This document shows, piece by piece, positions 12,960 to 31,470 of a stretch of DNA of 40,370 bases. A program made the translations under genes and the position numbers. Within the stretch, counting starts at the first letter, position 1. Each line of letters starts with the position of its first letter. Where the stretch lies: NCBI GenBank assembly GCA_035638715.1, contig DASQZL010000110.1:1-40370 (forward strand). Reading direction: 5' to 3'. Source of the stretch: Balneolaceae bacterium (GTDB taxonomy: Bacteria > Bacteroidota > Rhodothermia > Balneolales > Balneolaceae). The notes under the pieces are model-generated. The model was given only the letters and a program-made list of their open reading frames with translations. It was not told the origin of the DNA and did no database searches.

Positions 12960-13019
12960 AAGTTGTAATGACTTTTATGAAATATACCTCATATTACTGT
13001 GCAACATATCACTGTTCAG

Positions 13020-14042: not shown

Positions 14043-14089
14043 TATTTATGGCATGATCAATAAATATACCTGTAAAGGAAAATAGGCAA

Positions 14090-15487
14090 TTAACCACTCA
14101 CTGCAAAGCGGGTTAAGTGACGGGCTGTCGTCCATATAGGGCCTCCAATACTATGCACTTCATCCAGGGTTTCCTCAAAAGCTTCGAGGAACCAGTCAGC
14201 GTCACCTTTATTAATCATTAACGGGGGGAGAATTTTTATGATGTCAACGTTATGAGCTGCAACCTGCGTTAAAATGTGATGATCTTCAATAAGTGGCATG
14301 ATAATGGCCTGCGGGAATAATGATTGATTCGTCGGATGCATCATCTTCCACGCCGCTCTGTAGCGCAGGGCCTTGGGTTTGCCAAACTCAATACCAATCA
14401 TCAGCCCTTTGCCCCGGACTTCCTTAAGGAAATCATACTTTGGAATCATTGCGCGAAGCTTCTCAAGCATATATTCACCGGTTTTTTGAGCATTTTGCGG
14501 CAGGTTTTCCGATTCGGTTACTGCCAGGCTTCCCAAACCGCAGGCCATGGGCAGGCCTCCGCCTCCGAAGGTTGATGAGTGAACTTTACCCCGATCCATA
14601 CTTGAGTAAACCGAATGATAGATTTCATCCCGCATCAGCACCGCACCAACGGGCACCATGCCGCCGGAAAGCGATTTCGAGACTAATACCATATCAGGTT
14701 CAAGGTCCGGTACATGCTGATAACAGAATAATTTTCCTGTGCGTCCCATACCGGTCTGAATTTCATCCATGATGAAAACGGCATCATGCTTATTACACAA
14801 TTTCTGGACGCCCAGCATATATTCAGCGTTAGCCGGGTAAACGCCTTTCCCCTGAATGGGTTCTAAAATCACGCCGGCGATGTCATTTTTTTGAAATGCC
14901 CGTTCAAGGGCATCCAGATTGTTCAGCGGAACATTTACAGGACCGGGCAGAAAGCTGACGAATCCATCCTTAAAATTACTCGAACCATTAATCGACAATG
15001 ATCCGTAAGTGAGTCCGTGAAAGGCATGTTCGCAGTACACTACTTTTTCTTTGCCGGTCGTTGCACGACAAAATTTTAAAGCTGTTTCCACGCATTCCGT
15101 ACCGGAATTACCGAAGTACACTTTATCGAGATGTGGAACTTTCTCCAGCAGGGCTTCAGCAAGAAGGCCGGTCAATGGATTGGTCCCCATCGCCAATTTC
15201 CAGGTATCGTTAAGCTCGAGATAATCGTTTATGACCTCTTTTATGACCGGATGATTGCGACCCATATTGAACATGCCAAAACCGGAAAGAAAATCGAGAT
15301 ATTTTTCTCCTTTATCATCCCAGAGATAAGCTCCCCGCCCTTCTACATAGTTACGGTTGAACCCGATAGTTTTAAGTACTTTTGAAAATACGGGGTTGAC
15401 GTGCTTTTTATAAAGATCAGAATTTTTGTCGCGGTTTTCCTCAACCAGTTTTTTTAAGTCGAATCCGCCAGTGCTGGATTTATTCAT
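14090..15487 (-). CDS. Class-III PLP aminotransferase (ornithine/putrescine aminotransferase-like), HpnO-like by context
   Basis: GNSGTECVETALKF, DEIQTGMGRTGK, the Schiff-base lysine context VSKSLSGG, and HSSTFGG. The family call is firm; the hopanoid substrate is inferred from context. Confidence 0.8.
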   Translation of the reverse strand: MNKSSTGGFDLKKLVEENRDKNSDLYKKHVNPVFSKVLKTIGFNRNYVEGRGAYLWDDKGEKYLDFLSGFGMFNMGRNHPVIKEVINDYLELNDTWKLAMGTNPLTGLLAEALLEKVPHLDKVYFGNSGTECVETALKFCRATTGKEKVVYCEHAFHGLTYGSLSINGSSNFKDGFVSFLPGPVNVPLNNLDALERAFQKNDIAGVILEPIQGKGVYPANAEYMLGVQKLCNKHDAVFIMDEIQTGMGRTGKLFCYQHVPDLEPDMVLVSKSLSGGMVPVGAVLMRDEIYHSVYSSMDRGKVHSSTFGGGGLPMACGLGSLAVTESENLPQNAQKTGEYMLEKLRAMIPKYDFLKEVRGKGLMIGIEFGKPKALRYRAAWKMMHPTNQSLFPQAIIMPLIEDHHILTQVAAHNVDIIKILPPLMINKGDADWFLEAFEETLDEVHSIGGPIWTTARHLTRFAVSG

Positions 15488-15783
15488 AAAATATAATTAC
15501 CTCAATAGGGTTGAAAAACAAGATATATATTGAATTAAAGATAACAAAAATCATTATTGCTTGTGCAACTTTTTCTGGAATCCGATTTCTGTTTTTCAAT
15601 TATACAGCCAGTTTCGTACCTTCCTGAAAGATCATCCAGAATATTCAGCTTTTTAGTAGCTGCAAACTTTCATTTTAATAAAATTGCAGCATTTGTAGTC
15701 GAAGATATCTCTAATCAGTCCGTTTTTTTTATTATTTTCAGATAAAAGTTTCATAGCCGAACCTGTCTAAAATTACTGGTAAA

Positions 15784-16914
15784 ATGAAAGAAAATCTCCG
15801 CTTCCCGTCACCTGAATTATCACAGCATCCACTAATGGGGGCAAGGCTGGGAAATCTCTTTCAGCTGTTTTCGCAACAGCAGGGAGTGCTACCTTCTAAG
15901 TGGCCTTTTGTCCTGGCTTTTATGGGGTCTGCACTGGCACGCAGCCCCTTTTCGATGATTGACCGGTGGATTGCATCCCGGAAAAAAGCGGTAGAAAATT
16001 TGGAACCCCCGGTTTTTATTGTCGGATACTGGCGATCCGGAACGACCCATTTGCATAATTTACTGGGTCAGTCGCCGGACCTCGGTATCATCACCCCGCT
16101 CGGAAGCGGCCTGCCCGATGAGTTGTTAACACTTGGCACATGGTTTGAGCCGTTGCTCCAAAAAGGGCTGCCCGAAGATCGTGGCGTTGACCGTGTAGCT
16201 GTTAACCCCCAATCTCCACAGGAGGATGAAATTCCGGTAGCGAACCTGCAGAAATTATCGGTTTTTCACGCTCTCTACTTTCCTGCCAATTTCCGCAAAA
16301 ATTTTAATCGGGGCGTTTTTTTTGATGATGTTTCTGATAATGAAATTGAAGAATGGAAATCCGCGATGCTCTATTTTATTGGCAAGGTAGCCATCCATCA
16401 GGATAAGCAACCCCTGCTGATAAAAAATCCCGTTTACACAACACGTATTCATCTGCTTCGCGATCTCTGGCCTAACGCTCGCTTCATCCATATATATCGG
16501 AATCCCTACCGGGTTTTTCGGTCAACAAAGTATTACTACCCTGAAATAATTGATGAACTGGGTCTGCAGGCCTACGACCCTGCGGAGATTGAACCCGTAA
16601 TTTTAAATTCTTACCCGAGAATGCTCAATAAATTGTATGAAGACACAAATGACTTGCCGGAAAATCAATTTGTTGAAGTACAATATGAAAAACTGGACGA
16701 AAATCCGGTAGAGGTGCTTAAGAAAATTTATCACCAGCTGAATTTACCGGGCGGCTGGGAAGCGGCAAAGTCCAGCACTGAAGCATATTTAAAATCTATT
16801 GCTGACTATCGCAAGAACACCTATTCGTATGCCCCCGAGGATTTTGAAAAAGTAAATGAAAATTGGGGCAAATATGTAAACAAATGGGGATATGATTTAC
16901 CTGATACAGAGTAA
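15784..16914 (+). CDS. PAPS-dependent sulfotransferase family protein (paralog 1)
   Basis: 5'-phosphosulfate-binding loop GYWRSGTTHL (RSGTT at 16033..16047). FIHIYRNPYRVFRS is the region where a 3'-phosphate-binding motif would be expected. Clearly paralogous to 17166..18353. Confidence 0.8.
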   Translation: MKENLRFPSPELSQHPLMGARLGNLFQLFSQQQGVLPSKWPFVLAFMGSALARSPFSMIDRWIASRKKAVENLEPPVFIVGYWRSGTTHLHNLLGQSPDLGIITPLGSGLPDELLTLGTWFEPLLQKGLPEDRGVDRVAVNPQSPQEDEIPVANLQKLSVFHALYFPANFRKNFNRGVFFDDVSDNEIEEWKSAMLYFIGKVAIHQDKQPLLIKNPVYTTRIHLLRDLWPNARFIHIYRNPYRVFRSTKYYYPEIIDELGLQAYDPAEIEPVILNSYPRMLNKLYEDTNDLPENQFVEVQYEKLDENPVEVLKKIYHQLNLPGGWEAAKSSTEAYLKSIADYRKNTYSYAPEDFEKVNENWGKYVNKWGYDLPDTE

Positions 16915-17165
16915 TAGGAATATCTATTGAACCGTCCCCCATCTTCCGTAGCGGGCGAAAGTCTTAAAAACCTATGAAAATTCTCTGCTTGAGTGAGGCG
17001 TGGCTACTCCTGTGTGTTTTTATGGAGTCGGCAGACATTATGCCGTTGAATTGAACAGCAGAATTAAGTTTAACAGGATGAATATAAGAATTGCGCCTGT
17101 TATGTATCCCAAACTCAGGCTAACAGCTCCTTTCTTTCATAAAAGGCTAAAGAATCTCAAAATTG

Positions 17166-18353
17166 TCACGAAACGGCTGTATTTTTGACCTCCTCGTGCT
17201 GTAATGGATATAATTTTGTAGCATATCCAAATGCATCAAAACAATGGCCCCAGGCATCTGCAATTTTCCTTTTCTTGGCATTGGGCAGGCTGGGATAATT
17301 GTTGGTCTCATAGTCAGCGATAGATTCGATATATTCCAGCAAGCCAGGTTTAATTTCAGAAAAAGATTCCAATCCCAAATCGTGATAAATTTTTTCAATT
17401 GCCGCAACACGATTCTGAACGAGGTCCTCATAAGCCAACTGCGTTAGATTACCCTCCGGTATCAATGCTTTATCTTTTAAAAAAGTGTGATACATCTTTT
17501 TATATCGCCAAATGACGTAATCTTCCAACCCCTGCAGGTTCTTGGATTGATAACAGCAGTACGGCAGTGATTTCCGCTCCATCTTCATAGTAGATTGATA
17601 TACGCGATACGGGTTTCTGTAAATATGAATGAACTGCGCGTCCGGAAAAACCTCAAGCAATAATTGAATCTTAGCCGTATTAGTCGGAGCCTTGAAAAGT
17701 ATTGTAGCATCCGGATCACTTCGATATAACAGTTTTTGAGCAAATTTATAAAGCGCTTTTTTCCATTTCGTCCGTTGATTGCTACTGGCATCCTTAAGGC
17801 TTAGCATATATTTAAAATGATCACGGAATTCAGGGAAATAGCGGCTCATGTGGGTCGATAAGAATGTGCTGGAACAGAGTCCCCACTCCTCGCCAAGCGG
17901 CGAATCAGCAGAATGTTTTACTTTATCCTGGGGGCGTTCATCCGGGCTGAACCAAGAGGCAAGTTTATGGGCAATATTTTTGAATGTTAATAAAGTCTCA
18001 GGGAATAGTGTTTCGGTGACGGTTGGATATACAAATCGTTTATCATTTGTTAACAGTCGCCATAAATGTGTAGTTCCGCTTCGATGATGGCCAATGATAA
18101 AAATGGGAGATTTAACCTCAATCGATTCTAAATCCGATCGGTATTTTTTTTGCTCCCAATGAGCAAGTGCTGTATTCATAAGACTCATTGTCGTAGTAAA
18201 GGCGGTACGGGGCCAATATCGCGGGGGAATAGTGTTGCCATATTTTTTTAGAACCTTTTTCCATTCGCTGTAAACCGTTCCCGCCAACGGACTAAATATC
18301 CAGCGGGCAAGATTTCCGATAAGTTCCTGCCTCAATGACAATGTTATAGCCAT
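17166..18353 (-). CDS. PAPS-dependent sulfotransferase family protein (paralog 2)
   Basis: IIGHHRSGTTHLWRLL (RSGTT at 18069..18083, minus strand), FIHIYRNPYRVYQS and the C-terminal IADYETNNY, which parallels IADYRKNTY in paralog 1. Confidence 0.8.
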   Translation of the reverse strand: MAITLSLRQELIGNLARWIFSPLAGTVYSEWKKVLKKYGNTIPPRYWPRTAFTTTMSLMNTALAHWEQKKYRSDLESIEVKSPIFIIGHHRSGTTHLWRLLTNDKRFVYPTVTETLFPETLLTFKNIAHKLASWFSPDERPQDKVKHSADSPLGEEWGLCSSTFLSTHMSRYFPEFRDHFKYMLSLKDASSNQRTKWKKALYKFAQKLLYRSDPDATILFKAPTNTAKIQLLLEVFPDAQFIHIYRNPYRVYQSTMKMERKSLPYCCYQSKNLQGLEDYVIWRYKKMYHTFLKDKALIPEGNLTQLAYEDLVQNRVAAIEKIYHDLGLESFSEIKPGLLEYIESIADYETNNYPSLPNAKKRKIADAWGHCFDAFGYATKLYPLQHEEVKNTAVS

Positions 18354-18546
18354 AAAAATTAATTAGTGGGAAAAATTAATAATATGTATAATATAATCGA
18401 GCTAAATTTATTTTTATTATAAAGTTTCTCAAATAAATTTTATCAAATTAAAAGAACAATTAGCCGAGCTAATTTAAATGATATAATATAATTATTTTCC
18501 AGTCCGTCTCGTTCAAAATAGATTTTTAAAAAGACGATATGGAAAA

Positions 18547-19671
18547 TTAAATTTCATTTTTAACTACCCGTCCTCTCCAACGCATTCGTTCGCCCTGCCA
18601 GTAACGTATGGCTGAGGTCCATGTCATGGCCAAAAAAAGTGAAGCTGTAAGAGGAAAAGCTATAGCCCAGGACCAATTTAGGTTGTAATACCAAAGAGTG
18701 GGTAGATAAGTACATAACATAATTAAAACGGTGACCAGCGATGCCCAAAGCAGGTATCCCGAAAATAAAAATACCCCGACAATCGGAAGTACATAGGAAA
18801 AAAACATTAATAACGTACATAATAGCAAAAGTGTGATAGAATAGCTAAGCTGTGTATATGCCGTACGTGCTACCATATTCCATAGCTCGGTTAAACCGGT
18901 ATAGGGGCGTATGCTTTGTGCGGAGTGGGTCAACCCAAGCCATGTCCGATACCCCTGATCTTTCACCTGCCTGGCAAGTGTACAATCGTCAATTAATGTA
19001 TCTTTCAGAGAAGCAAAGCCGCCAATATCATCAAGCACCTGTTTCTTCGTCAATATACATCCTCCCGCGGCTGCAGCTACAAGATCGGAATCAGAATTCG
19101 ATACCCTAAACGGGTACAATAGCTTAAAAAAATATATGAATGCAGGCATCAGTAATTTGTCCCAAAAGCCGGTAAATGTAGGCATAGCCATGAGCGAAAT
19201 AAAAGCATACGGCTCACTTTTCAGTCGCTCTCGCAGGCCGCTAATCACCCCTTGTTTAAGTTTAATATCGGCATCAAGGAGCATGACAAAAGAAGTTTTA
19301 ACGCGTTTCCTACCCTGCTCCAAAGCCCATAATTTACCGCTCCATCCCTGTGGCCGCCGGCTGCCTTTTATGATGGTTAAATGATCGCCGCCAATTTCTT
19401 TTGCAATTCGGGCCGTATCATCATCAGAATTATCATCGATGACCAATATGTTCAAATTTTTTCCCTGTCGACATACTGCAGAAATGGTTTGATTGATGAC
19501 CTCAGACTCATTTCTGGCGGGTATAAGCACGGTTACATCACTTAAATCAACGAGATTACTTTTATCATCGGTTGACTCCCAGCTTTCTTTCGTTCGCCAT
19601 GGCTGCCAGGGAAGCACTAATATGATAACCCAGATGACCAGCGAAACGATTGGCAGTGTTGAGATAAGCAT
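18547..19671 (-). CDS. Membrane-anchored family-2 glycosyltransferase, HpnB/HpnI-like
   Basis: N-terminal TM helix, then the GT2 core VLIPARNE…IDDNSDDDT…LLDADI, then several C-terminal TM helices. This architecture matches hopanoid-associated GT2 enzymes. I cannot decide between HpnB and HpnI by eye. Confidence 0.78.
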   Translation of the reverse strand: MLISTLPIVSLVIWVIILVLPWQPWRTKESWESTDDKSNLVDLSDVTVLIPARNESEVINQTISAVCRQGKNLNILVIDDNSDDDTARIAKEIGGDHLTIIKGSRRPQGWSGKLWALEQGRKRVKTSFVMLLDADIKLKQGVISGLRERLKSEPYAFISLMAMPTFTGFWDKLLMPAFIYFFKLLYPFRVSNSDSDLVAAAAGGCILTKKQVLDDIGGFASLKDTLIDDCTLARQVKDQGYRTWLGLTHSAQSIRPYTGLTELWNMVARTAYTQLSYSITLLLLCTLLMFFSYVLPIVGVFLFSGYLLWASLVTVLIMLCTYLPTLWYYNLNWSWAIAFPLTASLFLAMTWTSAIRYWQGERMRWRGRVVKNEI

Positions 19672-19682
19672 ATAGCAAGTAT

Positions 19683-19726
19683 ATACAAAATAAAAAAGGC
19701 CCGATAAGATTTGTTATCGGGCCTTT
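19683..19726 (-). terminator. Strong rho-independent terminator immediately after hpnH
   Basis: Perfect 13-bp stem AAAGGCCCGATAA (19695-19707) / TTATCGGGCCTTT (19714-19726) with a 6-nt loop. On the minus strand it is followed by TTTTATTTTGTATA. Confidence 0.75.
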
Positions 19727-19740
19727 CAGTAATATTAATT

Positions 19741-20904
19741 TTATGCTATTGCTTCTGCTTCTTTATCCTTCTTTTTTTCTTTTTCTTCGAGTGCCTCTTT
19801 ATAAGCAGTGGGTTTCAGCGGATTAGACTCCTTGGCAAAGTCTTCCCACTCGTATTGACGTGGAATATCAGGAGCCATTTCGCCTTCTGTCTTAGGCCCG
19901 GTAATGGATTTTTTCAGTGCTTTAAGCGGGTGCGAGAAGGCGTCCTCGGCGGCTGTTCCTTCATAACCGCAATGAGCCATGCAATTATCGCACTTTGGAT
20001 TGCGACCGGTGCCCCATTTCTCCCAGTCGGTTTCCTCCATTAATTCTTCGAAGCTTTGAGCATAGCCTTCATTTACCAACAGGTAGCAGGGGCGTTGCCA
20101 TCCGAAAATGTTATAAGTGGGCATACTCCAGGGCGTGCATTGATACTGTTGGTTCCCGGCCAGAAAATCCAGAAACAGGCTGCTGTGATTAAATGACCAC
20201 CTACTGCCCCGCTCTTCTTGTTCCCTGAAAATTTCTCTGAACAGATTTTTCGTTTTATCTCTGCCCAGAAAACTGTCTTGATCGGGAGCAAATTCATAGC
20301 TGTATCCAGGAGAAACATCAATGCCGTCTACGCCAATATCCTCAACAAAATCGAAGAAATCAGCTACCCGTTCAGGTTCTGCATTATCAAACAGGGTGCA
20401 ATTGATATCGACATTAAACCCTCTTCCCTTGGCCATCTTAATTGCCTCAACAGCCCGGTCAAAAACTCCTTCACGCTCTACAGCCTTGTCATGTTCTTTT
20501 CTCAGGCCATCAAGGTGAATGGTGAATGTTAAATAAGGAGAAGGCTCAAAAAGGTCCAGTTTCTTTTTAAGCAGCACGGCATTCGTACATACCGATACAA
20601 ATTTTTTCCGATCGATAATACCCTGAACAATTTTATCAATCTCTTTATGGATAAGCGGTTCTCCGCCGGGAATAGCTACCATAGGCGCCCCGCACTCATC
20701 AACTGCTGACAAGGCATCTTCCACGCTCATGCGTTTTTTCAATATCTCTTTGGGATAAGCAATCTTCCCACACCCGGAACATGACAAATTACACTGGAAC
20801 AAGGGTTCAAGCATCAGTGTCAATGGATACTTATCCTCCCCCTTTAATTTCTTTCCGAGAATGTATTTTGCCATTTTAAACGTTTGCCTGAATGATACAC
20901 CCAT
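19741..20904 (-). CDS. hpnH: Adenosyl-hopene transferase (radical SAM) HpnH
   Basis: Radical-SAM CNLSCSGC (Cx3Cx2C) at 20770..20793. The N-terminal MGVSFRQTFKMAKYILGKKL…YPLTLMLEP and downstream GGEPL are typical of HpnH. Divergent from sqs-shc. Confidence 0.88.
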   Translation of the reverse strand: MGVSFRQTFKMAKYILGKKLKGEDKYPLTLMLEPLFQCNLSCSGCGKIAYPKEILKKRMSVEDALSAVDECGAPMVAIPGGEPLIHKEIDKIVQGIIDRKKFVSVCTNAVLLKKKLDLFEPSPYLTFTIHLDGLRKEHDKAVEREGVFDRAVEAIKMAKGRGFNVDINCTLFDNAEPERVADFFDFVEDIGVDGIDVSPGYSYEFAPDQDSFLGRDKTKNLFREIFREQEERGSRWSFNHSSLFLDFLAGNQQYQCTPWSMPTYNIFGWQRPCYLLVNEGYAQSFEELMEETDWEKWGTGRNPKCDNCMAHCGYEGTAAEDAFSHPLKALKKSITGPKTEGEMAPDIPRQYEWEDFAKESNPLKPTAYKEALEEKEKKKDKEAEAIA

Positions 20905-21423
20905 AGTTTTAAAGTTTTAAATTAGAAAGAATATTTTTTTTTAGCTATTTCCATAACTATTCGTAATTCAAAATCATTCGTGCGCGGAACATTTTTTTTG
21001 ATTTAATCTCAATTAAGATAAGAATTGAAAATTAATTCAAATAATCCTACAATATATATACACACTTAAATTTTCACCTTTTGACATCTATTCCAAATAT
21101 CACCATTTTCCAACCTCTATCAAAATTTTATATTTATTAATAGATAATGAATATATATAACTTGCATTTTTCTCTATATAGCCTATTTTGTTCGCTTTAA
21201 AAGGAGAAATAATTTATAAGTGGAATGGTGTTAAAAAACGAGGGGAACTAATTATTCATAGCAATTAAATATCAGGGATATGTTGGAAAATCAGCAATCA
21301 TCTTTAATGTTGTACGCAAATACATGAGTATAATTTAAAATATCAGTAATTTTCACTGCCAACATGTTATTAATAAAAAGGATTTCATTGTTCATACTAT
21401 AATAGTTTATCATAATTAACTAT

Positions 21424-22542
21424 ATGAAAGATAAAAAAAGCAATAGCAATACAAATACCGTTTCTAAATCCAATGACAAAGATGGTATAAGCAATTTATC
21501 TTATTCATCACAAAGAATTAAAAACTTCCGTGAAAATTATTCCGATACAGAACTCCAGTCTTATTTATTAGAAAACGTATCACGCACTTTTGCTCTTACT
21601 ATACCGGAGCTTCCAGATCCGCTTATTCGTGTTGTTTCTAATGCTTACCTGCTCTGCCGAATTGTGGATACCGTTGAAGATGAGCCAAATTTAACGCTGT
21701 CGCAGAAAGAAAACTTTTGCAGTCGCTTTATAGATGTTGTTTCAGGGACGGAGGACCCGGTACAATTTAGCCGTGACTTGGCTCCTTATCTTTCTAATGA
21801 AACCCTGGAAACGGAAAAAGAGCTAATTCTGTTGACAGACAGGGTCATCAATATCACCCATCAATTTAATGAACGACAGCAAAAAGCGATGGAACGGTGT
21901 ATTCGCATCATGGCAGATGGCATGGCGTTCTTTCAGCAACAGGGTTCAAAGCATGGGTTGCGAAATCTGCAGGATGTTAACAAATACTGCTATTACGTTG
22001 CTGGGGTTGTAGGTGAAATGCTGACGGAACTTTTTTGTATTTATTCCCCTGCGATTAACGAAAATCATGATGAATTGATGGATCTTGCGGTTTCATTTGG
22101 TCAGGGATTGCAAATGACAAACATCCTGAAGGACGTGTGGGAGGATTATGACCGATCGGCGTGCTGGCTACCCAGAAACTATTTTGAAAATGACCTGGCA
22201 AATTTAGAACAGGGAAAATCAACCGAAGATTTTAAAGAAGGTATTGATGAACTGATCGGGGTTACCCATGGACACCTGCAGGATGCAATGAGTTATATTT
22301 TACTCATTCCAGCTGAGGAAAAGGGTATTCGCCGTTTTTGTTATTGGGCTGTCGGAATGGCTATATTAACCATAAAGAAAATTCATAAAAATTTAGAATA
22401 TACAAATGGTGATGAGGTAAAAATTTCGCGGAAAAGTGTAAAAGCAACAATTTTATTTACAAATATTACGGTCGGAAGCAATCGTCTCTTAAAGTTGTTA
22501 TTTGACGCCACCCGCTGGGGGCTTCCTGATCCCAGAAAATAA
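21424..22542 (+). CDS. sqs: Squalene synthase (farnesyl-diphosphate farnesyltransferase, single-enzyme SQS type)
   Basis: SRTFALTI, YLLCRIVDTVEDE (DTVED at 21667..21681), YCYYVAGVVGEMLT and LQMTNILKDVWED parallel the conserved SQS segments. About 45 aa of Ser/Asn/Lys-rich N-terminal extension. Confidence 0.85.
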   Translation: MKDKKSNSNTNTVSKSNDKDGISNLSYSSQRIKNFRENYSDTELQSYLLENVSRTFALTIPELPDPLIRVVSNAYLLCRIVDTVEDEPNLTLSQKENFCSRFIDVVSGTEDPVQFSRDLAPYLSNETLETEKELILLTDRVINITHQFNERQQKAMERCIRIMADGMAFFQQQGSKHGLRNLQDVNKYCYYVAGVVGEMLTELFCIYSPAINENHDELMDLAVSFGQGLQMTNILKDVWEDYDRSACWLPRNYFENDLANLEQGKSTEDFKEGIDELIGVTHGHLQDAMSYILLIPAEEKGIRRFCYWAVGMAILTIKKIHKNLEYTNGDEVKISRKSVKATILFTNITVGSNRLLKLLFDATRWGLPDPRK

Positions 22543-22579
22543 GCTTAACTGTGTTTTAGAACGAAGATCAAACTTTAAA

Positions 22580-25288
22580 ATGGAAAAGAAGCATTCTCCT
22601 AAAAAGGCAACCTCAATAAGCGAAAACAACGATAAGCAAACACATCTCGACCAAGCAATAAAAAAAGCAAGATCTTCCCTCCTTTCTGATCAGCATGAAG
22701 ACGGATATTGGTTTTATGAACTTGAAGCCGACTGCACGATTCCCGCTGAATACATCATGATGATGCACTACATGGATGAAATTGACGAGGAATTGCAGGA
22801 AAAAATTGCTGTCTATTTGCGGCGTCATCAGAATGAAGCCGGCGGGTGGCCCCTTTATTATGGAGGGAAATCCGATTTGAGCTGTTCAGTCAAAGCATAT
22901 TATGCGCTTAAAATGGCCGGAGATGATATTGATGCGCCTCATATGACCAAGGCCAGGGAACTCATTCTTTCCATGGGAGGTGCGGCCAAATCCAATGTTT
23001 TTACACGTATCGCCCTGGCGCTTTTCGAACAAATTCCCTGGCGCGCGGTCCCGTTTATTCCAGTGGAGATTATGACCTTTCCCGACTGGTTTCCTCTCCA
23101 CCTGCAAAAGGTTTCCTACTGGTCAAGAACCGTTATGGTTCCGTTGTTCATTTTATATAGCCTGAGAGCCAAAGCTCGTAATCCGCATAATGTCGGGGTT
23201 CAGGAGCTTTTTTTAGTTCAGCCTGAAAAAGAGGACGACTATTTTAAAATTCGTTCTATGACAAATCGTTTTATTTTTGGCCTTGAACGAATTGGCCTGA
23301 AACTTGAGCCATATATCCCCAACCGCTTCAGAGAACATGCAATAAAGAAAGCGGAAGAGTGGTTTGTGGCTCGCCTCAACGGTGAAGATGGACTTGGAGC
23401 AATTTTTCCAGCGATGGTTAATGCGTATGAAGCCCTCGATTTGCTGGGTTATCCCGAAGATCATCCCCACCGGAAAACTGCTAAAAAAGCACTTCAAAAA
23501 TTATTGGTTGTCAGAGAAGATGAGGCCTATTGTCAGCCCTGCCTGTCTCCCATCTGGGACACCATTTTATCTGCAGGCGCCATACAGGAAACAGGCATCG
23601 CAGACCAGGATCAAGAACAAGCCCTCGTCAATGCAACCGAGTGGCTGGCTAACAAACAGTTAACGGATGAGCCCGGTGACTGGCGAAATGACCGCCCCGA
23701 TTTGCAAGGTGGCAGCTGGCCGTTTCAGTTTCGCAACGATTACTATCCGGATCTTGACGATACGGCATTCGCCGCTTTTGTGTTGCATTCTATCGATTCG
23801 GAGAAGTACAAGGACAATATTTTGCGTGCGGCCCGCTGGCTGAAAGGCATGCAATCCAGTAATGGCGGGTTTGCGGCATTTGAATATGACAACACCTACT
23901 ACTATTTAAACGAGATACCATTTGCAGATCACGGGGCCTTGCTGGACCCTCCTACTGCGGATGTAAGTGCCCGCTGCGCAATGCTTTTCGGTCAACTGGA
24001 AAATGAATATCCGGAGTTTCGTGAGCCGTTAAACCGCTGCCTTGATTATTTATTTGAGGTACAGGAAGAAGATGGTTCCTGGTTTGGACGCTGGGGAACA
24101 AATTATATTTATGGGACCTGGTCGGTACTGATTGCCTGTGAGTCCGCCGACATTCCTCCGGAAGAGCCGGAAATTCAGCGGGCCGTTGCCTGGCTGAAAC
24201 GGAAACAGCGTGAAGACGGCGGCTGGGGAGAGGATAACTGGAGTTACCATGATCCAGAAACCCGTGGTGAAGCAGATCGCAGCACTTCCTTCCAGACAGC
24301 GTGGGCTGTAATGGGACTGATTGCAGCCGGCGAGGTGGACTCTGAAGCTGTCAGAAGGGGTATTGATTTTCTACTGTCAACCCAGGAAGAAGATGGATTC
24401 TGGAGCGATCCGGAATTCACGGCTCCCGGTTTCCCCCGGGTTTTCTATTTGAAATATCACGGGTATACAAAATTCTTTCCACTCTGGGCGCTGGCTAAAT
24501 ATCAACGTAAAATAGATGATGAAAAATTAATCTCCAATGTGCAGGATAAGACGTCCAAAAATAAAATTGGTATTGTCGTAGCCCTCCCCCGTGAATTGCA
24601 GACGCTTGGCAATCATCATAAAGCCGGCAGTGAAATTATTCATCACTCTGAACGGATATTGATCGGACAGTCCGGCGTCGGAGCTAAGAATGCAAAAAAG
24701 GCAGCCGAACGCCTTATCAACCACGGAGCCAATATTTTAATCAGCTGGGGTACGGCTACGGCCCTGACTCCCGATATTGCCCCGGGAACAATAGCAATCC
24801 CGGATAAAGTACTGACTACCGAACAGGATATTTTTGAAACGGACCGTAGGTTGAGAGAACATTTATTCAACGAACTGCCGCTTGATGGTATGTTCGTGCA
24901 CGATACCATTTGTGAAACGGACGAAATACTTGCCAATACATCACAAAAGACGACTTTGGCAGCCCGTACAAACGCCAGGATAGCGGATATGGAGACTGCA
25001 GCTGTTGCCAGAGTAGCCAAAGAACATGATATTCCATTCCTGGCCATTCGATCCGTGTCTGATTCGGCTGAAATGCAGATTCCCCGGGCAATTAAGAATA
25101 ATGTAAATGATGGCACGCCAAACACTTTGGGAATTTTGAGTGATGCAATATTAGAACCGAAAGATTGGTTGCCAATGATCAGCCTTTCTTATAATTTTAA
25201 CAAAGCTCAAAAGTCACTGAGTAAAATGGCTCAAATTATATTACCCTATTTGAATCGCCAGGCAGATAATATAAAACTTCAAAAATAA
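22580..25288 (+). CDS. shc: Squalene-hopene cyclase fused in frame to a C-terminal HpnG-type nucleosidase/phosphorylase domain
   Basis: Start moved to ATG 22580 (MEKKHSPKK), because the ORF-track start at 22502 overlaps the sqs 3' end. The SHC part (22580..~24511) has DGYWFYELE, repeated QW-type motifs and the catalytic DLDDTA at 23750..23767. A 17-aa linker follows. The part from 24563..25285 reads KIGIVVALPRE…GQSGVGAKNAKKAA…LISWGTATAL…ADMETAAVA…FLAIRSVSD, a PNP/UDP-1 nucleosidase fold as in HpnG. There is no stop codon between the two parts. Confidence 0.88.
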   Translation: MEKKHSPKKATSISENNDKQTHLDQAIKKARSSLLSDQHEDGYWFYELEADCTIPAEYIMMMHYMDEIDEELQEKIAVYLRRHQNEAGGWPLYYGGKSDLSCSVKAYYALKMAGDDIDAPHMTKARELILSMGGAAKSNVFTRIALALFEQIPWRAVPFIPVEIMTFPDWFPLHLQKVSYWSRTVMVPLFILYSLRAKARNPHNVGVQELFLVQPEKEDDYFKIRSMTNRFIFGLERIGLKLEPYIPNRFREHAIKKAEEWFVARLNGEDGLGAIFPAMVNAYEALDLLGYPEDHPHRKTAKKALQKLLVVREDEAYCQPCLSPIWDTILSAGAIQETGIADQDQEQALVNATEWLANKQLTDEPGDWRNDRPDLQGGSWPFQFRNDYYPDLDDTAFAAFVLHSIDSEKYKDNILRAARWLKGMQSSNGGFAAFEYDNTYYYLNEIPFADHGALLDPPTADVSARCAMLFGQLENEYPEFREPLNRCLDYLFEVQEEDGSWFGRWGTNYIYGTWSVLIACESADIPPEEPEIQRAVAWLKRKQREDGGWGEDNWSYHDPETRGEADRSTSFQTAWAVMGLIAAGEVDSEAVRRGIDFLLSTQEEDGFWSDPEFTAPGFPRVFYLKYHGYTKFFPLWALAKYQRKIDDEKLISNVQDKTSKNKIGIVVALPRELQTLGNHHKAGSEIIHHSERILIGQSGVGAKNAKKAAERLINHGANILISWGTATALTPDIAPGTIAIPDKVLTTEQDIFETDRRLREHLFNELPLDGMFVHDTICETDEILANTSQKTTLAARTNARIADMETAAVARVAKEHDIPFLAIRSVSDSAEMQIPRAIKNNVNDGTPNTLGILSDAILEPKDWLPMISLSYNFNKAQKSLSKMAQIILPYLNRQADNIKLQK

Positions 25289-25302
25289 CTCTTGCCCCTT
25301 TC

Positions 25303-26304
25303 ATGAACGTAGATGATACGACTCAATCATTAAATAAAGATGTACAGAAACATATAGACCGTATTAATGAACTGATTACTAACGGCGATTTCCAGGATAG
25401 TCCCGATACTTTATATGAACCAATTCGGTATATTTTAAATACCGGTGGCAAGCGCTTGCGACCACTATTGACACTTTTTGGCTGTTACCTTTTTTCTGGT
25501 GAGACTGAGAATGCTTTGATGCCGGGTATAGGTATTGAGCTGTTTCATAACTTTACCTTGATCCACGACGATATCATGGATAATGCCCCCCTGCGGCGTG
25601 GTCAGGAAACGGTTCACCGGAAGTGGAATCAAAATGTCGCCATCCTTTCCGGAGATACCATTTTGTTTAAGGCCTATCATTATCTTATGCAGGTAAATGA
25701 ACCGCTTATAAAGGATGTCATCATGCTTTTTAATGAGTGTGCCATTGATGTCTGTGAAGGACAGCAGTTTGATATGGATTTCGAAAATCGCGAGAGGGTA
25801 AGTGAAGAGGAATATCTGAAAATGATTCGATTAAAAACCGCTGCGGTGCTGGGATTTTCACTTCAGCTTGGAGCTTTAATAGGTGGTGCCAATGTAGAAA
25901 ATACGGAAGCACTTAAAAATTTTGGCATTAATATTGGACTTGGTTTTCAATTGAAAGACGATCTTCTGGATGTCTTCGGAGATTTTGGTAAATTTGGTAA
26001 GCAAGTAGGCGGAGATATAATTGCAAATAAGAAAACATATTTGTTAATTAAAGCAATGGAACTTGCTAATGCAGAACAAAATAAAAAACTTCAAGGGTGG
26101 TTACATGGTGATTTAAGCAACGAAGAAAAAGTAAAACGTGTTACCCAATTATATAAAGAACTCCATATTAGGCAGCTAACCGAACAGAAAATTAGTGAAT
26201 TTTTTGAAATCGCTTTAACTTATTTAAATAAGATCGATTGTCCAGAGCATAGAAAAGAAGAATTAGCTGATTTTTCAAGTTCATTGATAGAACGTGAGAA
26301 CTAA
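25303..26304 (+). CDS. Short-chain trans-polyprenyl diphosphate synthase (FPP/GGPP synthase family)
   Basis: First Asp-rich motif DDIMD at 25567..25581, followed by LRRG. Second motif FQLKDDLLD. Product chain length cannot be read off reliably. Confidence 0.88.
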   Translation: MNVDDTTQSLNKDVQKHIDRINELITNGDFQDSPDTLYEPIRYILNTGGKRLRPLLTLFGCYLFSGETENALMPGIGIELFHNFTLIHDDIMDNAPLRRGQETVHRKWNQNVAILSGDTILFKAYHYLMQVNEPLIKDVIMLFNECAIDVCEGQQFDMDFENRERVSEEEYLKMIRLKTAAVLGFSLQLGALIGGANVENTEALKNFGINIGLGFQLKDDLLDVFGDFGKFGKQVGGDIIANKKTYLLIKAMELANAEQNKKLQGWLHGDLSNEEKVKRVTQLYKELHIRQLTEQKISEFFEIALTYLNKIDCPEHRKEELADFSSSLIEREN

Positions 26305-26343
26305 TTAGAAAAATTTAATGTTAACTAAAAAAAGGTGTTCGTT

Positions 26344-28266
26344 ATGGAAAGTGAAATTAGTGCCGGCCCTTTACTTGAACCCATCCATTCGCCAGATGAT
26401 TTAAAGAAACTGGATCCGGATCAACTGGTTGAATTGTGTGATGAATTGAGAGATTATATTATTGAAACGGTCTCAGTCCATGGCGGGCATTTTGGAGCAA
26501 GTCTGGGCACCGTTGAACTTACTGTGGCCCTGCACTACGTATTCGATACCCCCAGAGATCGTCTGGTATGGGATGTTGGACATCAAGCCTATGGACACAA
26601 AATTTTGACCGGACGGCGCCCTCAATTCCATACGAACCGTAAATATAAAGGATTGGCTGGTTTTCCAAAGCGGGAAGAAAGTGAATATGATACCTTTGGT
26701 GTTGGCCATTCAAGCACTTCTATTTCTGCTGCTTTGGGAATGGCTACAGCCCGCGATCTTGACGGAGGCGATAACCACGTCGTTACAATCACCGGCGACG
26801 GGGCCATGACGGCGGGATTAGCTTTTGAGGGACTCAATAATGCCGGGTATCTCAATAAGGATATGATTGTCATCCTTAATGATAATGATATGTCTATAGA
26901 TCCCAATGTTGGTGCTCTTAATGAATATTTGGTTGAGATAGCAACCAGTAAAACGTTTAATAAACTGCGTGATGAGATCTATAACATGCTCAGCCAGTTT
27001 AAATCGGCCGGAGAGAAGATGCAGAAAGTTGCCTCCAGGCTTGAAAAAGCTATTGGTACGGCTATCACTCCCGGCGGACTATTTCAGGCGCTGGGTTTCA
27101 AGTATTATGGCCCTGTGGATGGACATAATATCGATACGCTCCGTCGTACACTCAATGATCTGAAGGATATTCCGGGTCCAAAGCTGTTGCACGCCGTTAC
27201 AGTTAAGGGGAAAGGATTTGCCCCGGCGGAGAGAGAGCAAACGAAATGGCACTCACAGAGCAGCCCATTCGATAAAATAACCGGAGAATCGCTTGCAAAA
27301 GATAACGGTCCGGATATTCCGCGTTATCAGCATGTTTTTGGAGATGCTATTGTCGAATTGGCTGAGGAAGATGATCGTATTGTCGGTATTACCCCGGCGA
27401 TGCCCAGCGGATCCAGCCTCTGGCCGCTCATGAAAGCATTTCCGGAACGGGCCTTCGATGTAGGTATTGCGGAACAACACTCCATCACATTTGCAGCCGG
27501 CCTGGCTACTGAAGGCAAAAAAGCATTTGCCGCCATCTATTCCACCTTCTTGCAACGGGCTTATGACCAGGTAATTCACGATGTCGCTATTCAAAATCTG
27601 CCTGTCGTATTTTGTATTGATCGTGCCGGACTGGTCGGGGCTGATGGACGTACCCACCATGGAGCTTATGATATTTCATATCTCCGTAATGTACCGAATA
27701 TGATTGTGTCTTCTCCCCTCAATGAACAGGGACTGCGCGATCTTATGTACACTGCATCTAAATATGAAGAATCGCCATGGGCTATTCGCTATCCCCGCGG
27801 AGAGGCAACGGGTATGGAAATGCGCGATGAATTTCACTCCGTAGAAATAGGAAAAGGAGAATGCCTGCGCGAGGGCGATGAAATAGCGATTCTTAGTTTT
27901 AGCCCCATTGGCAATTACGTAATTGAGGCAGCGGATAGACTCGAAGAAGAGGGTATCAACGTTGGACACTATAATATGCGGTTTGCCAAACCGTTGGATA
28001 CCGAATTAATTGATCAGGTTTGTCATTCGTATGAGCGAATCATAACAATCGAGGACGGTACTGTACTCGGTGGTTTTGGCGGGGCCGTTGCCGAATATCT
28101 ATCGGATAAACCCTCTCGCGTACCTGTAACAATTATGGGTATCCCGGATCGGGTTATTGAACATGGCACGCAGCGGCAGCTTCATGATGAAATTGGCATT
28201 GGTCCGGATGGCATCATAGAGCAGGTCAAGAGCGTTCAAAAGGGAATTGTTGCCCAAACAAGTTAA
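26344..28266 (+). CDS. dxs: 1-deoxy-D-xylulose-5-phosphate synthase
   Basis: GHFGASLGTVELTVALHYVF, GHQAYGHKILTGR, the ThDP motif GDGAMTAGLAFEGLNNAG and GIAEQH. I prefer ATG 26344 over the GTG at 26335 used by the ORF track. Confidence 0.95.
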   Translation: MESEISAGPLLEPIHSPDDLKKLDPDQLVELCDELRDYIIETVSVHGGHFGASLGTVELTVALHYVFDTPRDRLVWDVGHQAYGHKILTGRRPQFHTNRKYKGLAGFPKREESEYDTFGVGHSSTSISAALGMATARDLDGGDNHVVTITGDGAMTAGLAFEGLNNAGYLNKDMIVILNDNDMSIDPNVGALNEYLVEIATSKTFNKLRDEIYNMLSQFKSAGEKMQKVASRLEKAIGTAITPGGLFQALGFKYYGPVDGHNIDTLRRTLNDLKDIPGPKLLHAVTVKGKGFAPAEREQTKWHSQSSPFDKITGESLAKDNGPDIPRYQHVFGDAIVELAEEDDRIVGITPAMPSGSSLWPLMKAFPERAFDVGIAEQHSITFAAGLATEGKKAFAAIYSTFLQRAYDQVIHDVAIQNLPVVFCIDRAGLVGADGRTHHGAYDISYLRNVPNMIVSSPLNEQGLRDLMYTASKYEESPWAIRYPRGEATGMEMRDEFHSVEIGKGECLREGDEIAILSFSPIGNYVIEAADRLEEEGINVGHYNMRFAKPLDTELIDQVCHSYERIITIEDGTVLGGFGGAVAEYLSDKPSRVPVTIMGIPDRVIEHGTQRQLHDEIGIGPDGIIEQVKSVQKGIVAQTS

Positions 28267-28959: not shown

Positions 28960-29862
28960 TTAAATCATTTTTGAATTGGATATAGCTTTAATTTCTTGTG
29001 TATCGTACGCGGGAATTGCACCGTTTTTTGAGGCAACATAAGCGCCGGCAGCATTCGCAAAAGCAATAATCTCTTTCCCCGTTTTACCAGATTTAATCCC
29101 AGACAACAGAGCGGCGGTAAAGGCGTCCCCTGCCCCAACTGTATCGGCCACATTGACTTCATGGGACGGGCAACTAAACCAGGAATCATGATACAGTAGC
29201 TCAGCTCCCTCCGCACCTCTTGTAACTGCAATCACCGGACAGTCAAATTTTTGCGCCAGCATTCGGACGGATCCTTCGGATGATTTTGTAATTTTGAACC
29301 ATTCGTATAATTGTTCCAACTCTGATTCATTTATTTTAAGAATATCAGCTGCATAGAGGGAAGTTTCTATAATATCACGATTAAAATGAGGCGCTCGCAA
29401 ATTAACATCAAATACTTTGTGGCAATCACTATTTAATAACTGCTGAATGGTATTTCGACTTCTGCCGTTGCGTTGAGCCAAACTGCCAAATACGATGCCC
29501 CACGCTTTATCCAAGCGTTTGTAAAGAGCATTCTTTGGACTTATATAATCCCAGGCGGTTGGCTCTATGAATTGATAATTCGGATCGCCTGTCCTATCCA
29601 GCTCAACGGCAACAAAACCGGTCTCCCGTTTATTATCAATCTGTATAAGTTCGGTTGACAGTCCTTTTGCTCTGAGTCGCCGCAATGCCTCCTTTCCCAA
29701 ACGATCATCCCCTACCCGACTAAAAATAGTACTTTGTTCGCCTAAATTGTGCAAGTGAAGACACACATTCAGCGGAGCCCCACCCAGATAGAGCCCTGAA
29801 GGCAAACCATCCCACAAAATTTCACCGACACAAATGATTTCATTGTTAATATCGCGGGTCAT
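28960..29862 (-). CDS. PfkB-family carbohydrate kinase, probable fructokinase
   Basis: N-terminal GEILWD…GGAPLNV, C-terminal DTVGAGDAFTAALL. Adjacent to the GH32 gene. Confidence 0.85.
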   Translation of the reverse strand: MTRDINNEIICVGEILWDGLPSGLYLGGAPLNVCLHLHNLGEQSTIFSRVGDDRLGKEALRRLRAKGLSTELIQIDNKRETGFVAVELDRTGDPNYQFIEPTAWDYISPKNALYKRLDKAWGIVFGSLAQRNGRSRNTIQQLLNSDCHKVFDVNLRAPHFNRDIIETSLYAADILKINESELEQLYEWFKITKSSEGSVRMLAQKFDCPVIAVTRGAEGAELLYHDSWFSCPSHEVNVADTVGAGDAFTAALLSGIKSGKTGKEIIAFANAAGAYVASKNGAIPAYDTQEIKAISNSKMI

Positions 29863-29874
29863 AAGGATATGAGG

Positions 29875-31470
29875 TTATTTCCGATAAGAATGTAATTTCC
29901 AAATATCAAGAGAAGAAATTTTAAGGGTGCCACCCCGAGCAAATAATTGCAGTCCGTCTGAGCTTAGCCGGGGGTAAATATCATCCGTTATGACTCTTTT
30001 TCCCTCATTGGCAAAAACTTCAACCGAACTTCGATCCACCAGGATATGCAAATGAATCAGACCATTTTCGAGCCGGAGTGGCGCTGACTGTATGCCTCCG
30101 GGAAAAGCCTTGCTAAACTGATCCCTGCCAGAATGAGTTCTATTTACGTAGAGCTCGTTTTGGTTGGGTTTATATCCGATGACGGTTTGTTGATTTTTCC
30201 CTTTTCGAACGATGAAACCGATTTTTTTTGCCGTACTCGGTTTCAAAGTGGCTTGAATTTCTACTGAGGTACCGGTTATACCTTTTTTACTGAGAGAAAG
30301 TTTTCCGGAATGAATGGCAAGATTTGAGAAATGAAAGTGCTGACCTCGCAATGAATGCAATTCTTTCACTGGATTTTGCAATAAATAATAGCTGTCGTCA
30401 CCTTTTTGAAGCGTAATACTTCGCGGAACGGTCATCATTCCCCTGAACGGATGTGTAGGAGCTTGCTGTGCATATTGCCAGTTGTCCATCCAGGCCAGCC
30501 ACAGGGTACGCCCGTCGCTGGCGGGGATATTGGCCCAGGAAGTAGCAGCATAAAAATCCATGCCATAATCAACCCGATGAGGATTATCTTTAAATGCCGG
30601 ATCGGGGATAAATGTTTTACCATTGAAATTGCCTACAAAATATAGCCCATTTTGAACGCTATCTATTTTGCCTGAAATTTCAAGCACCCACTTTTTCTGA
30701 GATGGTTCATTTTTCACATGAACCTTGCTCAATATAGGGCATTCCCAGTTTCCTTCGGTGGCTCCCTGGGGTCCGAAATCGCTCAACTTTTTCCAATGTA
30801 TCAAATCGGGAGACCGATAAAATCTGACTTTATGCTGCGCCGAGAGAGCCACGACCATGATCCATTCTTTATCCGGAGCATACCAAAAGACTTTGGGATC
30901 CCGGAAGTTTTTGGAATGCAAAGTGATAACCGGGTTACCCTTGAATTTGGTCCAGGTATGTCCGTGATCAAGACTATAGGCTAATCGCTGATCCTGAATA
31001 TGGGTCTTTGTGTTATAACCCGCATAAATAGCAACCATGGGAATTTTACCATTTTTACCAAAACCGCTGGTGTTATTGGAATCGACGACGGCACTGCCGG
31101 AAAAGATCATCTCATTGTTGGCTTCAGGAATGGCTACGGGAAGCTGTTTCCAATGTATCATATCGGAAGAAACAGCATGGCCCCAGCTCATGTGTCCCCA
31201 TTTATTGCCAAAAGGATTATATTGAAAAAAGAGATGATATTCCCCATCAAAATAAACAAGCCCATTGGGATCATTGGTCCAGTTTTTAGCTGGAGTAAAA
31301 TGAAATTGGGGGCGGAAGGGGTTTGGCTTATTTGTCGGAGCGGTTTGTAAACTATCACTTTGTGCCTGACAATAAGCAAAAGAAGGAAATATTAGGGACG
31401 ACAATATTACCAGTGCTAAAAATTGTTGTATGATATGAAGTAATTTTTTATTTAGAGACACTGGATTCAC
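29875..31470 (-). CDS. Secreted glycoside hydrolase family 32 (beta-fructofuranosidase/levanase/inulinase)
   Basis: Signal peptide. WTNDPNGLVYFDGEYHLFFQYNP (nucleophile motif), FRDPKVFW (RDP motif) and NWECP (EC motif). The start codon is GTG. Confidence 0.9.
   Translation of the reverse strand: MNPVSLNKKLLHIIQQFLALVILSSLIFPSFAYCQAQSDSLQTAPTNKPNPFRPQFHFTPAKNWTNDPNGLVYFDGEYHLFFQYNPFGNKWGHMSWGHAVSSDMIHWKQLPVAIPEANNEMIFSGSAVVDSNNTSGFGKNGKIPMVAIYAGYNTKTHIQDQRLAYSLDHGHTWTKFKGNPVITLHSKNFRDPKVFWYAPDKEWIMVVALSAQHKVRFYRSPDLIHWKKLSDFGPQGATEGNWECPILSKVHVKNEPSQKKWVLEISGKIDSVQNGLYFVGNFNGKTFIPDPAFKDNPHRVDYGMDFYAATSWANIPASDGRTLWLAWMDNWQYAQQAPTHPFRGMMTVPRSITLQKGDDSYYLLQNPVKELHSLRGQHFHFSNLAIHSGKLSLSKKGITGTSVEIQATLKPSTAKKIGFIVRKGKNQQTVIGYKPNQNELYVNRTHSGRDQFSKAFPGGIQSAPLRLENGLIHLHILVDRSSVEVFANEGKRVITDDIYPRLSSDGLQLFARGGTLKISSLDIWKLHSYRK

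Follow-up and report, generated by a model that had tools for sequence, protein, structure and literature searches.

The 40,370-nucleotide contig DASQZL010000110.1 of a Balneolaceae bacterium (GenBank assembly GCA_035638715.1), called the window throughout this text, carries one long gene in which a squalene-hopene cyclase (SHC, encoded by shc or hpnF) runs on into an HpnG-type nucleosidase. It is likely that this gene is a genuine fusion, through which the packed neighbours shc (hpnF) and hpnG are now translated as one polypeptide of about 100 kDa in an uncultured subclade of the Balneolaceae. The features of the fused gene, given with window coordinates, are as follows.

22580..25288, forward strand: fused shc::hpnG open reading frame (ORF), 902 codons plus stop; the frame is uninterrupted and independent assemblies agree on it.
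22580..24511, forward strand: squalene-hopene cyclase domain, residues 1-644, recognized by TIGR01507, both Pfam domains, the DLDDTA motif and QW repeats.
24512..24562, forward strand: polar linker of 17 residues, IDDEKLISNVQDKTSKN, read from the sequence and of low predicted confidence.
24522..24526, forward strand: A5 homopolymer inside the linker.
24539..24541, forward strand: in-frame GTG, the only conceivable internal start of a separate HpnG, 10 codons ahead of the conserved GIVVALP.
24563..25285, forward strand: HpnG-type domain of the PNP/MTAN fold, residues 662-902, recognized by PNP_UDP_1, TIGR03468 and its catalytic residues.

The frame opens with the ATG at 22580 and its stop codon ends at 25288; an alternative upstream TTG at 22502 would run into the squalene synthase gene. 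The cyclase part ends ...FPLWALAKYQRK at 24511 and the nucleosidase part opens with KIGIVVALPRE at 24563, with neither a stop codon nor an ATG in the linker between them. An earlier note on this DNA, hereafter the original prediction, had described one uninterrupted 902-codon frame with a complete SHC up to 24511, a 17-residue linker, a junction lacking both stop and ATG, and a PNP/UDP-type nucleosidase domain from 24563. Every element of that structural description is correct, and the GTG that it put at about 24538 occupies 24539-24541.

The N-terminal 644 residues are strongly supported as a complete SHC of the monotopic membrane type, which would convert squalene into diploptene or diplopterol. 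The Pfam domains SQHop_cyclase_N (residues 27-313) and SQHop_cyclase_C (residues 322-643) are both aligned end to end, and the NCBIfam model TIGR01507 is matched over positions 15-637 of 640 with 865 bits, compared with a cut-off of 431. The catalytic DLDDTA sequence, which represents the DxDD proton-donor motif, lies at residues 391-396 (23750-23767) and is accompanied by five Q...G.W repeats. Aspartates D391, D393 and D394 are invariant across 52 aligned sequences. An AlphaFold2 model of the cyclase has predicted local distance difference test (pLDDT) scores mostly above 90 over residues 20-650, and its fold agrees with that of solved SHC structures (TM score 0.93 and root-mean-square deviation 2.6 Å to 3sqc_A in Foldseek). 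Thus, the full model, the DxDD motif and the QW repeats are all held in common with known SHC proteins (SHC/HpnF; TIGR01507; Alicyclobacillus acidocaldarius 1SQC, 2SQC and 3SQC), and identity to 3SQC is 39%. Characterised SHCs measure 621-676 residues, as do 116 of the 120 database proteins most closely related to the full-length sequence, whereas the window protein is longer and has about 258 additional C-terminal residues made up of the linker and the HpnG domain.

The C-terminal domain matches Pfam PNP_UDP_1 (PF01048) over residues 662-848 with 84 bits against a cut-off of 25, and by far its best NCBIfam family is TIGR03468, HpnG, with 144-148 bits. Known HpnG proteins (TIGR03468; genetics in Methylobacterium, Rhodopseudomonas, Burkholderia and Streptomyces) share with it the PNP_UDP_1/MTAN fold and the catalytic Glu, Met-Glu and Asp residues. 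The C-terminal helical extension of proteins named HpnG is also present, as is the location directly after shc and near hpnH. What sets the window version apart is that known HpnG is a free-standing protein of about 240 residues, whereas here it forms the C-terminal domain of an SHC; the score of 148 bits, compared with a cut-off of 187, falls short in its unfused Balneolaceae orthologues too. Loss of the residues needed for nucleosidase activity had been named with the original prediction as a sign that it was wrong. In the alignment, all MTAN-equivalent catalytic residues are kept: E672 (in ALPRE), M804/E805 (in DMET), R824 and D828 correspond to E12, M173/E174, R193 and D197 of Escherichia coli MTAN and are invariant. 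Foldseek places the domain among MTAN and futalosine hydrolase structures with TM scores of about 0.7. Judged from these alignments, the catalytic residues of both domains are intact.

A full-length AlphaFold2 prediction, which had been proposed as a check, returned an SHC-like and an MTAN-like fold joined by a low-confidence junction. Both domains fold (mean pLDDT 86.8, predicted TM score 0.73), and confidence is lowest around the junction, where pLDDT falls to 54 for residues 651-660 and 53 for residues 671-680. The alignment used for this prediction (A3) has four rows over the HpnG part, and the model is uninformative on how the two domains pack against each other.

Four proteins among the 120 best relatives depart from the usual length: the window protein itself, P0002 (902 residues), P0003 (895 residues) and P0018 (824 residues). 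From a search for long SHC proteins, suggested earlier as a further check, we accept fusions beyond the window only in the lineages of P0002 and of P0003/P0390. The P0002 fusion is present in both JGI and Logan assemblies, and P0003 has a gap-free sister, P0390, from a second Logan run that is 98% identical. The gene order in these lineages is that of the window, with a divergent hpnH followed by squalene synthase, shc::hpnG, polyprenyl synthase and dxs. Relative to the window, identity is 74-78% in the SHC part and 47-50% in the HpnG part. The linkers of the window protein, P0002 and P0003 (13-18 residues) are mutually unalignable, and it is strongly supported that this segment is fast-evolving and of low confidence in prediction. 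None of the fused proteins bears a name in its source database, and the architecture is unnamed in the databases searched.

Other candidates were rejected. P0289 (696 residues, high GC) lies on a long-read contig, L021, with shc and hpnH fragmented; P0018 lies on a long-read contig of 3x depth (L002) with a split lytB gene; and P0248 has a frameshifted SHC C-terminus. The long open frames at L013 and L015 are out-of-frame stop-free stretches in high-GC DNA. In L021 (contig_7608, 957 kb), shc is broken into pieces of 187 and 696 residues. Fragmented long-read contigs can thus yield apparent fusions, which calls for caution in database-wide counts of domain architectures.

The nearest shc loci belong to uncultured Balneolaceae metagenome-assembled genomes, and a SufB-like gene at 38351-39829 of the window is 89% identical to its counterparts in Fodinibius and Aliifodinibius, which identifies the organism as a soil member of the Balneolaceae. 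The closest unfused cyclases, 72-75% identical, are encoded in the same operon with a separate PNP_UDP_1 gene of 248-250 residues directly 3' of shc. Split pairs in the nearest Balneolaceae (L003, L004, L005, L007, L016 and L017) share the order squalene synthase, shc, hpnG, polyprenyl synthase and dxs with a divergent hpnH, and are 69-75% (SHC) and 33-50% (HpnG) identical to the window. In L003 and L005, hpnG overlaps shc by 8-11 nucleotides in a different frame; in L004 the two genes are 18 nucleotides apart; and in L007, L009 and L016 they share one frame with a single stop codon between them. The window has no such stop and keeps a single frame throughout. The distance from FPLWAL to GIVV is 93, 87 and 78 nucleotides in the three fused lineages and 88 nucleotides in L003 and L005. 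It follows from these arrangements that fusion and separation of the two genes differ by a stop codon, a ±1 frame change or both, which is a matter of a few mutations. The fusion would have arisen when the stop codon or frame offset between adjacent shc and hpnG was lost, leaving a single ORF.

A rival explanation is that sequencing or assembly introduced an error of one base into the A5 run at 24522-24526, by which two separate genes came to look like one. Deleting one A gives GAA AAT TAA and an SHC that ends ...YQRKIDDEN, and this stop falls within one codon of the end of the L003 SHC (...YQRETDNE). It is this near match that makes a homopolymer error a real possibility, and the apparent fusions P0289/L021, P0018/L002 and P0248 were indeed found in error-prone long-read contigs with split genes. 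A further reservation about the fusion is that support for the junction comes from assembled contigs and thus stands at the contig level rather than that of raw reads. The original prediction had asked for assembly support across the junction, and three independent contigs cross it without an indel. X1, a Logan contig of 7.7 kb and word depth 31.5 that stems from a soil run of 2017, covers 23800-25300 with 5 single-nucleotide polymorphisms (SNPs), all synonymous, and 0 gaps. X3, a 285-bp Logan contig that stems from a different study and a run of 2024, spans 24335-24618 with 4 SNPs; 3 of the 4 change amino acids of the linker (I>K, D>N, K>Q) without disturbing the frame. L183, a JGI metagenome contig, matches the 3679 bp from 21563 to 25241 of the window at 99.54% identity and differs there by 17 SNPs and 0 gaps.

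The A5 run is read in all independent assemblies of the window lineage, and the fused frame is carried by at least three haplotypes of that lineage, whose SNP differences mark them as separate strains. Overall, the continuous frame is found in four assemblies of the window lineage and in two further, more divergent lineages, each seen twice, which come from short-read assemblies. An assembly or sequencing artefact is largely refuted by these observations, and we regard it as extremely improbable.

A second concern is that the HpnG half might be a decaying remnant, with its activity lost after an accidental fusion or supplied by another copy, such that only the SHC is functional. Only 40 kb of the genome are in view, and a second hpnG may exist elsewhere. 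Moreover, two findings speak against an active domain. Its score does not reach the curated TIGR03468 cut-off of 187.1, and a comparison of P0003 with P0390 gives 11 non-synonymous and 3 synonymous differences in HpnG, a ratio of the two rates (dN/dS) of about 1.1 from small counts, versus 3 and 13 (dN/dS 0.065) in SHC. Unfused orthologues also stay under the cut-off, and so does a Crenothrix protein that bears the name 'hopanoid-associated phosphorylase' (185.3 bits); fused proteins score 139-149 bits and unfused members of the clade 137-141 bits. The low score therefore belongs to this clade and to the model and does not stem from the fusion. The P0003/P0390 pattern hints at relaxed constraint or diversifying selection in their lineage, or at noise from low-depth contigs. 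Within the window lineage, 4 SNPs fall in the HpnG domain, and all 4 are synonymous. HpnG diverges 2.5-3.3 times as fast as SHC in fused pairs and 2.5-5.6 times as fast in unfused ones, and so the relative rate is not raised by fusion. Lineages whose HpnG domains share only 47-50% identity still have this frame open, and E672, M804/E805, R824 and D828 are all invariant. These comparisons suggest no general relaxation of constraint on the HpnG domain, and we consider decay to be very unlikely.

The genuine fusion that we favor is also rare. A scan of GTDB species representatives with the HpnG alignment returned 80 loci from Balneolaceae, Gammaproteobacteria, Burkholderiales, Nitrosomonas, Acidobacteriota, Opitutales and others. 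In 66 of these, shc is immediately upstream, and none of the 66 adjacent pairs is fused. The corresponding scan of JGI metagenomes gave at least 80 loci, and shc and hpnG are adjacent in 63 of 80 among the matches listed, where the only fused pair is L183 from the window's own lineage. In total, fusion occurs among these 129 adjacent loci (66 from GTDB and 63 from JGI among the matches listed) only in the window lineage. These counts are samples rather than a census, as P0002's contig is not among the JGI matches listed. They agree with the original prediction, which held that shc and hpnG are normally separate and often adjacent, and such rarity is itself a point against the fusion being strongly advantageous.

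Split pairs that lie in the same frame are more frequent, amounting to 11 of the 66 GTDB loci (at least one stop codon) and 10 of the 63 JGI loci among the matches listed, mostly with one stop codon between the genes. Their junctions include the following.

L007, 3204-3208: same-frame shc/hpnG junction.
L009, 5893-5897: same-frame shc/hpnG junction.
L016, 5887-5891: same-frame shc/hpnG junction; eight further GTDB loci are of this kind.

In such pairs, a single substitution or read-through of the stop codon would yield a fusion protein. Two other searches bear less on frequency. When the C-terminal domain by itself was the query of a word-indexed search of proteins, the full-length protein that it belongs to was missed, and this search is unusable for counting fusions. 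A search of representatives at 50% identity with a junction-centred query yielded the junction-spanning proteins P0289 and P0248, which are among the rejected candidates; in it, the clusters of the window protein, P0002 and P0003 are not listed, probably because unfused SHCs represent them. The near-absence of fusions in this representative search is a lower bound only, because those clusters are unlisted.

Neighbour-joining trees with bootstrap support, computed for each of the two parts and for both concatenated, provide a view of the direction of change. The SHC and HpnG trees are congruent, and the fused domains co-diverge like split orthologues. In the concatenated tree, fused P0003/P0390 branch first, followed by fused P0002 and then by the fused window protein as sister to unfused L003 and P0008/P0121, with support of 99, 93 and 100%. 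Monophyly of the fused proteins has 0% bootstrap support. The unfused subclade thus sits within a grade of fused lineages, which speaks against a strong advantage of the fusion. Because of this arrangement, at least two fusion or fission events would be required.

One of two histories is that a single fusion occurred at the base of the clade and was later split in one subclade, for a total of two events. This account is favored by parsimony and by the nested unfused HpnGs, which carry a linker-length N-terminal extension of 15 residues compared with 2-5 residues in outgroup HpnGs. On this account, the frame would have stayed open as SHC fell to 74-78% and HpnG to 47-50% identity. The other history is that of three independent fusions, with which the three mutually unalignable linkers and a P0002 linker that still begins with ATG are consistent.

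Bacteriohopanepolyols are made from ribosylhopane. SHC cyclises squalene, and the radical-SAM enzyme HpnH then places a 5'-deoxyadenosyl group on diploptene. HpnG, a PNP homologue, removes adenine from the resulting adenosylhopane to give ribosylhopane, and hpnG knockouts accumulate adenosylhopane (PMC13459092). The placement of HpnG after HpnH in the original prediction agrees with this scheme. The window protein is most likely a bifunctional membrane-tethered enzyme, in which the cyclase half would anchor an otherwise soluble HpnG domain on the surface of the membrane and thus next to its lipid substrate. The main consequence might be equimolar (1:1) co-expression of the two halves. Both halves would be expressed as a single polypeptide and would be active, and a kinetic benefit may follow. 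Channeling within a metabolon, as proposed for shc::hpnG in the original prediction, might also play a part; a direct hand-over from SHC to HpnG is impossible without HpnH, because the fused domains catalyse steps one and three.

It is also conceivable that a separate HpnG protein is produced, either as the main form or alongside the fusion, by initiation at the GTG at 24539 or, in P0002, at the ATG with which the linker begins. In that case, the fusion would have no functional effect, and the two genes would act like the ancestral translationally coupled pair. Several details lean in this direction and away from the single polypeptide. The in-frame GTG is 10 codons before the first conserved strand (GIVVALP), and the P0002 linker opens with ATG at the point expected for an ATGA-type overlap with the stop codon of shc. 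In L003 and L005, hpnG starts about 15 codons before GIVV, inside the 3' end of shc, and so initiation in this A-rich region works in close relatives. No RNA run containing the locus was found that would bear on either reading. However, in P0003/P0390 neither ATG nor GTG occurs in frame from the SHC C-terminal helix to GIVVAMP, and the only candidate start is a TTG (the Leu codon of WAL). Furthermore, the full-length protein would still be made, since no stop codon intervenes. We therefore think it unlikely that internal initiation is the chief source of HpnG or leaves the pair to behave as two coupled genes.

If the bifunctional enzyme exists as we propose, its selective advantage is probably small, because the fusion is rare and apparently reversible, with a nested unfused subclade only a few mutations apart. 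It might be close to neutral or of mild benefit, and would then fall short of a mechanistic innovation. A bolder 'Rosetta-stone' reading, which we find somewhat doubtful, is that SHC, HpnH and HpnG are normally in physical contact in a membrane-surface complex, and that this clade has made one of those contacts covalent. If so, the very hydrophobic intermediates would never leave the bilayer interface.

The closest published parallel that turned up is the fused hpnCD of subdivision 2 Acidobacteria, Actinobacteria and Alphaproteobacteria (PMC5462960), where neighbouring genes of the same pathway have likewise merged in some lineages. HpnC and HpnD are homologues that catalyse consecutive steps of squalene synthesis, whereas SHC and HpnG have unrelated folds and catalyse non-consecutive steps. 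A fusion of shc with hpnG is undescribed in the papers that we found pairing hpnG with 'fusion' or 'fused', where only the fused hpnCD appeared.

The fused gene lies in a supercluster of isoprenoid and hopanoid genes that spans about 16 kb (window 11925-28266). Its members on either side of the fusion are listed below.

15784..16914, forward strand, and 17166..18353, reverse strand: two PF13469 sulfotransferase genes between hpnB and a class-III aminotransferase gene, with no NCBIfam match.
18547..19671, reverse strand: hpnB-type hopene-associated glycosyltransferase (TIGR03469, 383.5 bits versus a cut-off of 379.25).
19741..20904, reverse strand: hpnH, adenosyl-hopene transferase of the radical-SAM type, divergent from the shc operon (TIGR03470, 535 bits versus a cut-off of 225).
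21424..22542, forward strand: squalene synthase of the single-enzyme SQS_PSY type, immediately upstream of the fusion (PF00494, 174 bits; squal_synth, 124 bits, under its cut-off).
25303..26304, forward strand: polyprenyl diphosphate synthase, 14 nucleotides 3' of the fusion (PF00348, 251 bits).
26335..28266, forward strand: Dxs, 1-deoxy-D-xylulose-5-phosphate synthase (PF13292, 398 bits).

The hpnH gene is thus encoded divergently next door, as the original prediction had stated. The remaining members are a type-2 IPP isomerase (TIGR02151, 360 bits), an HpnL-like membrane protein (TIGR03476, 181 bits, cut-off 196) and the class-III aminotransferase, which is possibly HpnO-like. The three-gene hpnCDE route to squalene is common in hopanoid producers and was not seen within the window, where squalene is apparently made by the single SQS_PSY-type synthase. 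An AT-rich spacer of 520 bp (20905-21423) separates the divergent hpnH from the squalene synthase operon and is presumably a shared regulatory region; the GC fraction is 0.376 for 20001-22000 and about 0.42-0.45 nearby. Sulfotransferase genes recur beside hopanoid genes in relatives (L004, 13870-16211; L023, 3043-4167), raising the possibility that Balneolaceae carry sulfated hopanoid side chains. Just 3' of the isoprenoid genes, and unrelated to the fusion, are genes for a GH32 glycoside hydrolase and a PfkB kinase on the reverse strand (28960-31470), which suggest fructan or sucrose use. A literature search found no hopanoid study on Balneolaceae, and the window shows that some members of this family carry a full hopanoid cluster.

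Both enzymes and their pathway are well known, and what is new is a domain architecture confined to one small uncultured clade. The fusion is genuine and rare, yet it is a small evolutionary step, and it shows how one or two mutations can be enough to fuse or to split genes that lie tightly packed and are translationally coupled. If the single polypeptide is active, it would be natural evidence that a side-chain enzyme of the soluble type works when tethered to a monotopic cyclase. It would also offer a route to testing the membrane-surface organisation of hopanoid side-chain biosynthesis, as well as a compact two-in-one part for engineering hopanoid production. The main value of shc::hpnG lies in its use as a natural probe for whether the enzymes of hopanoid side-chain synthesis act in concert at the membrane.

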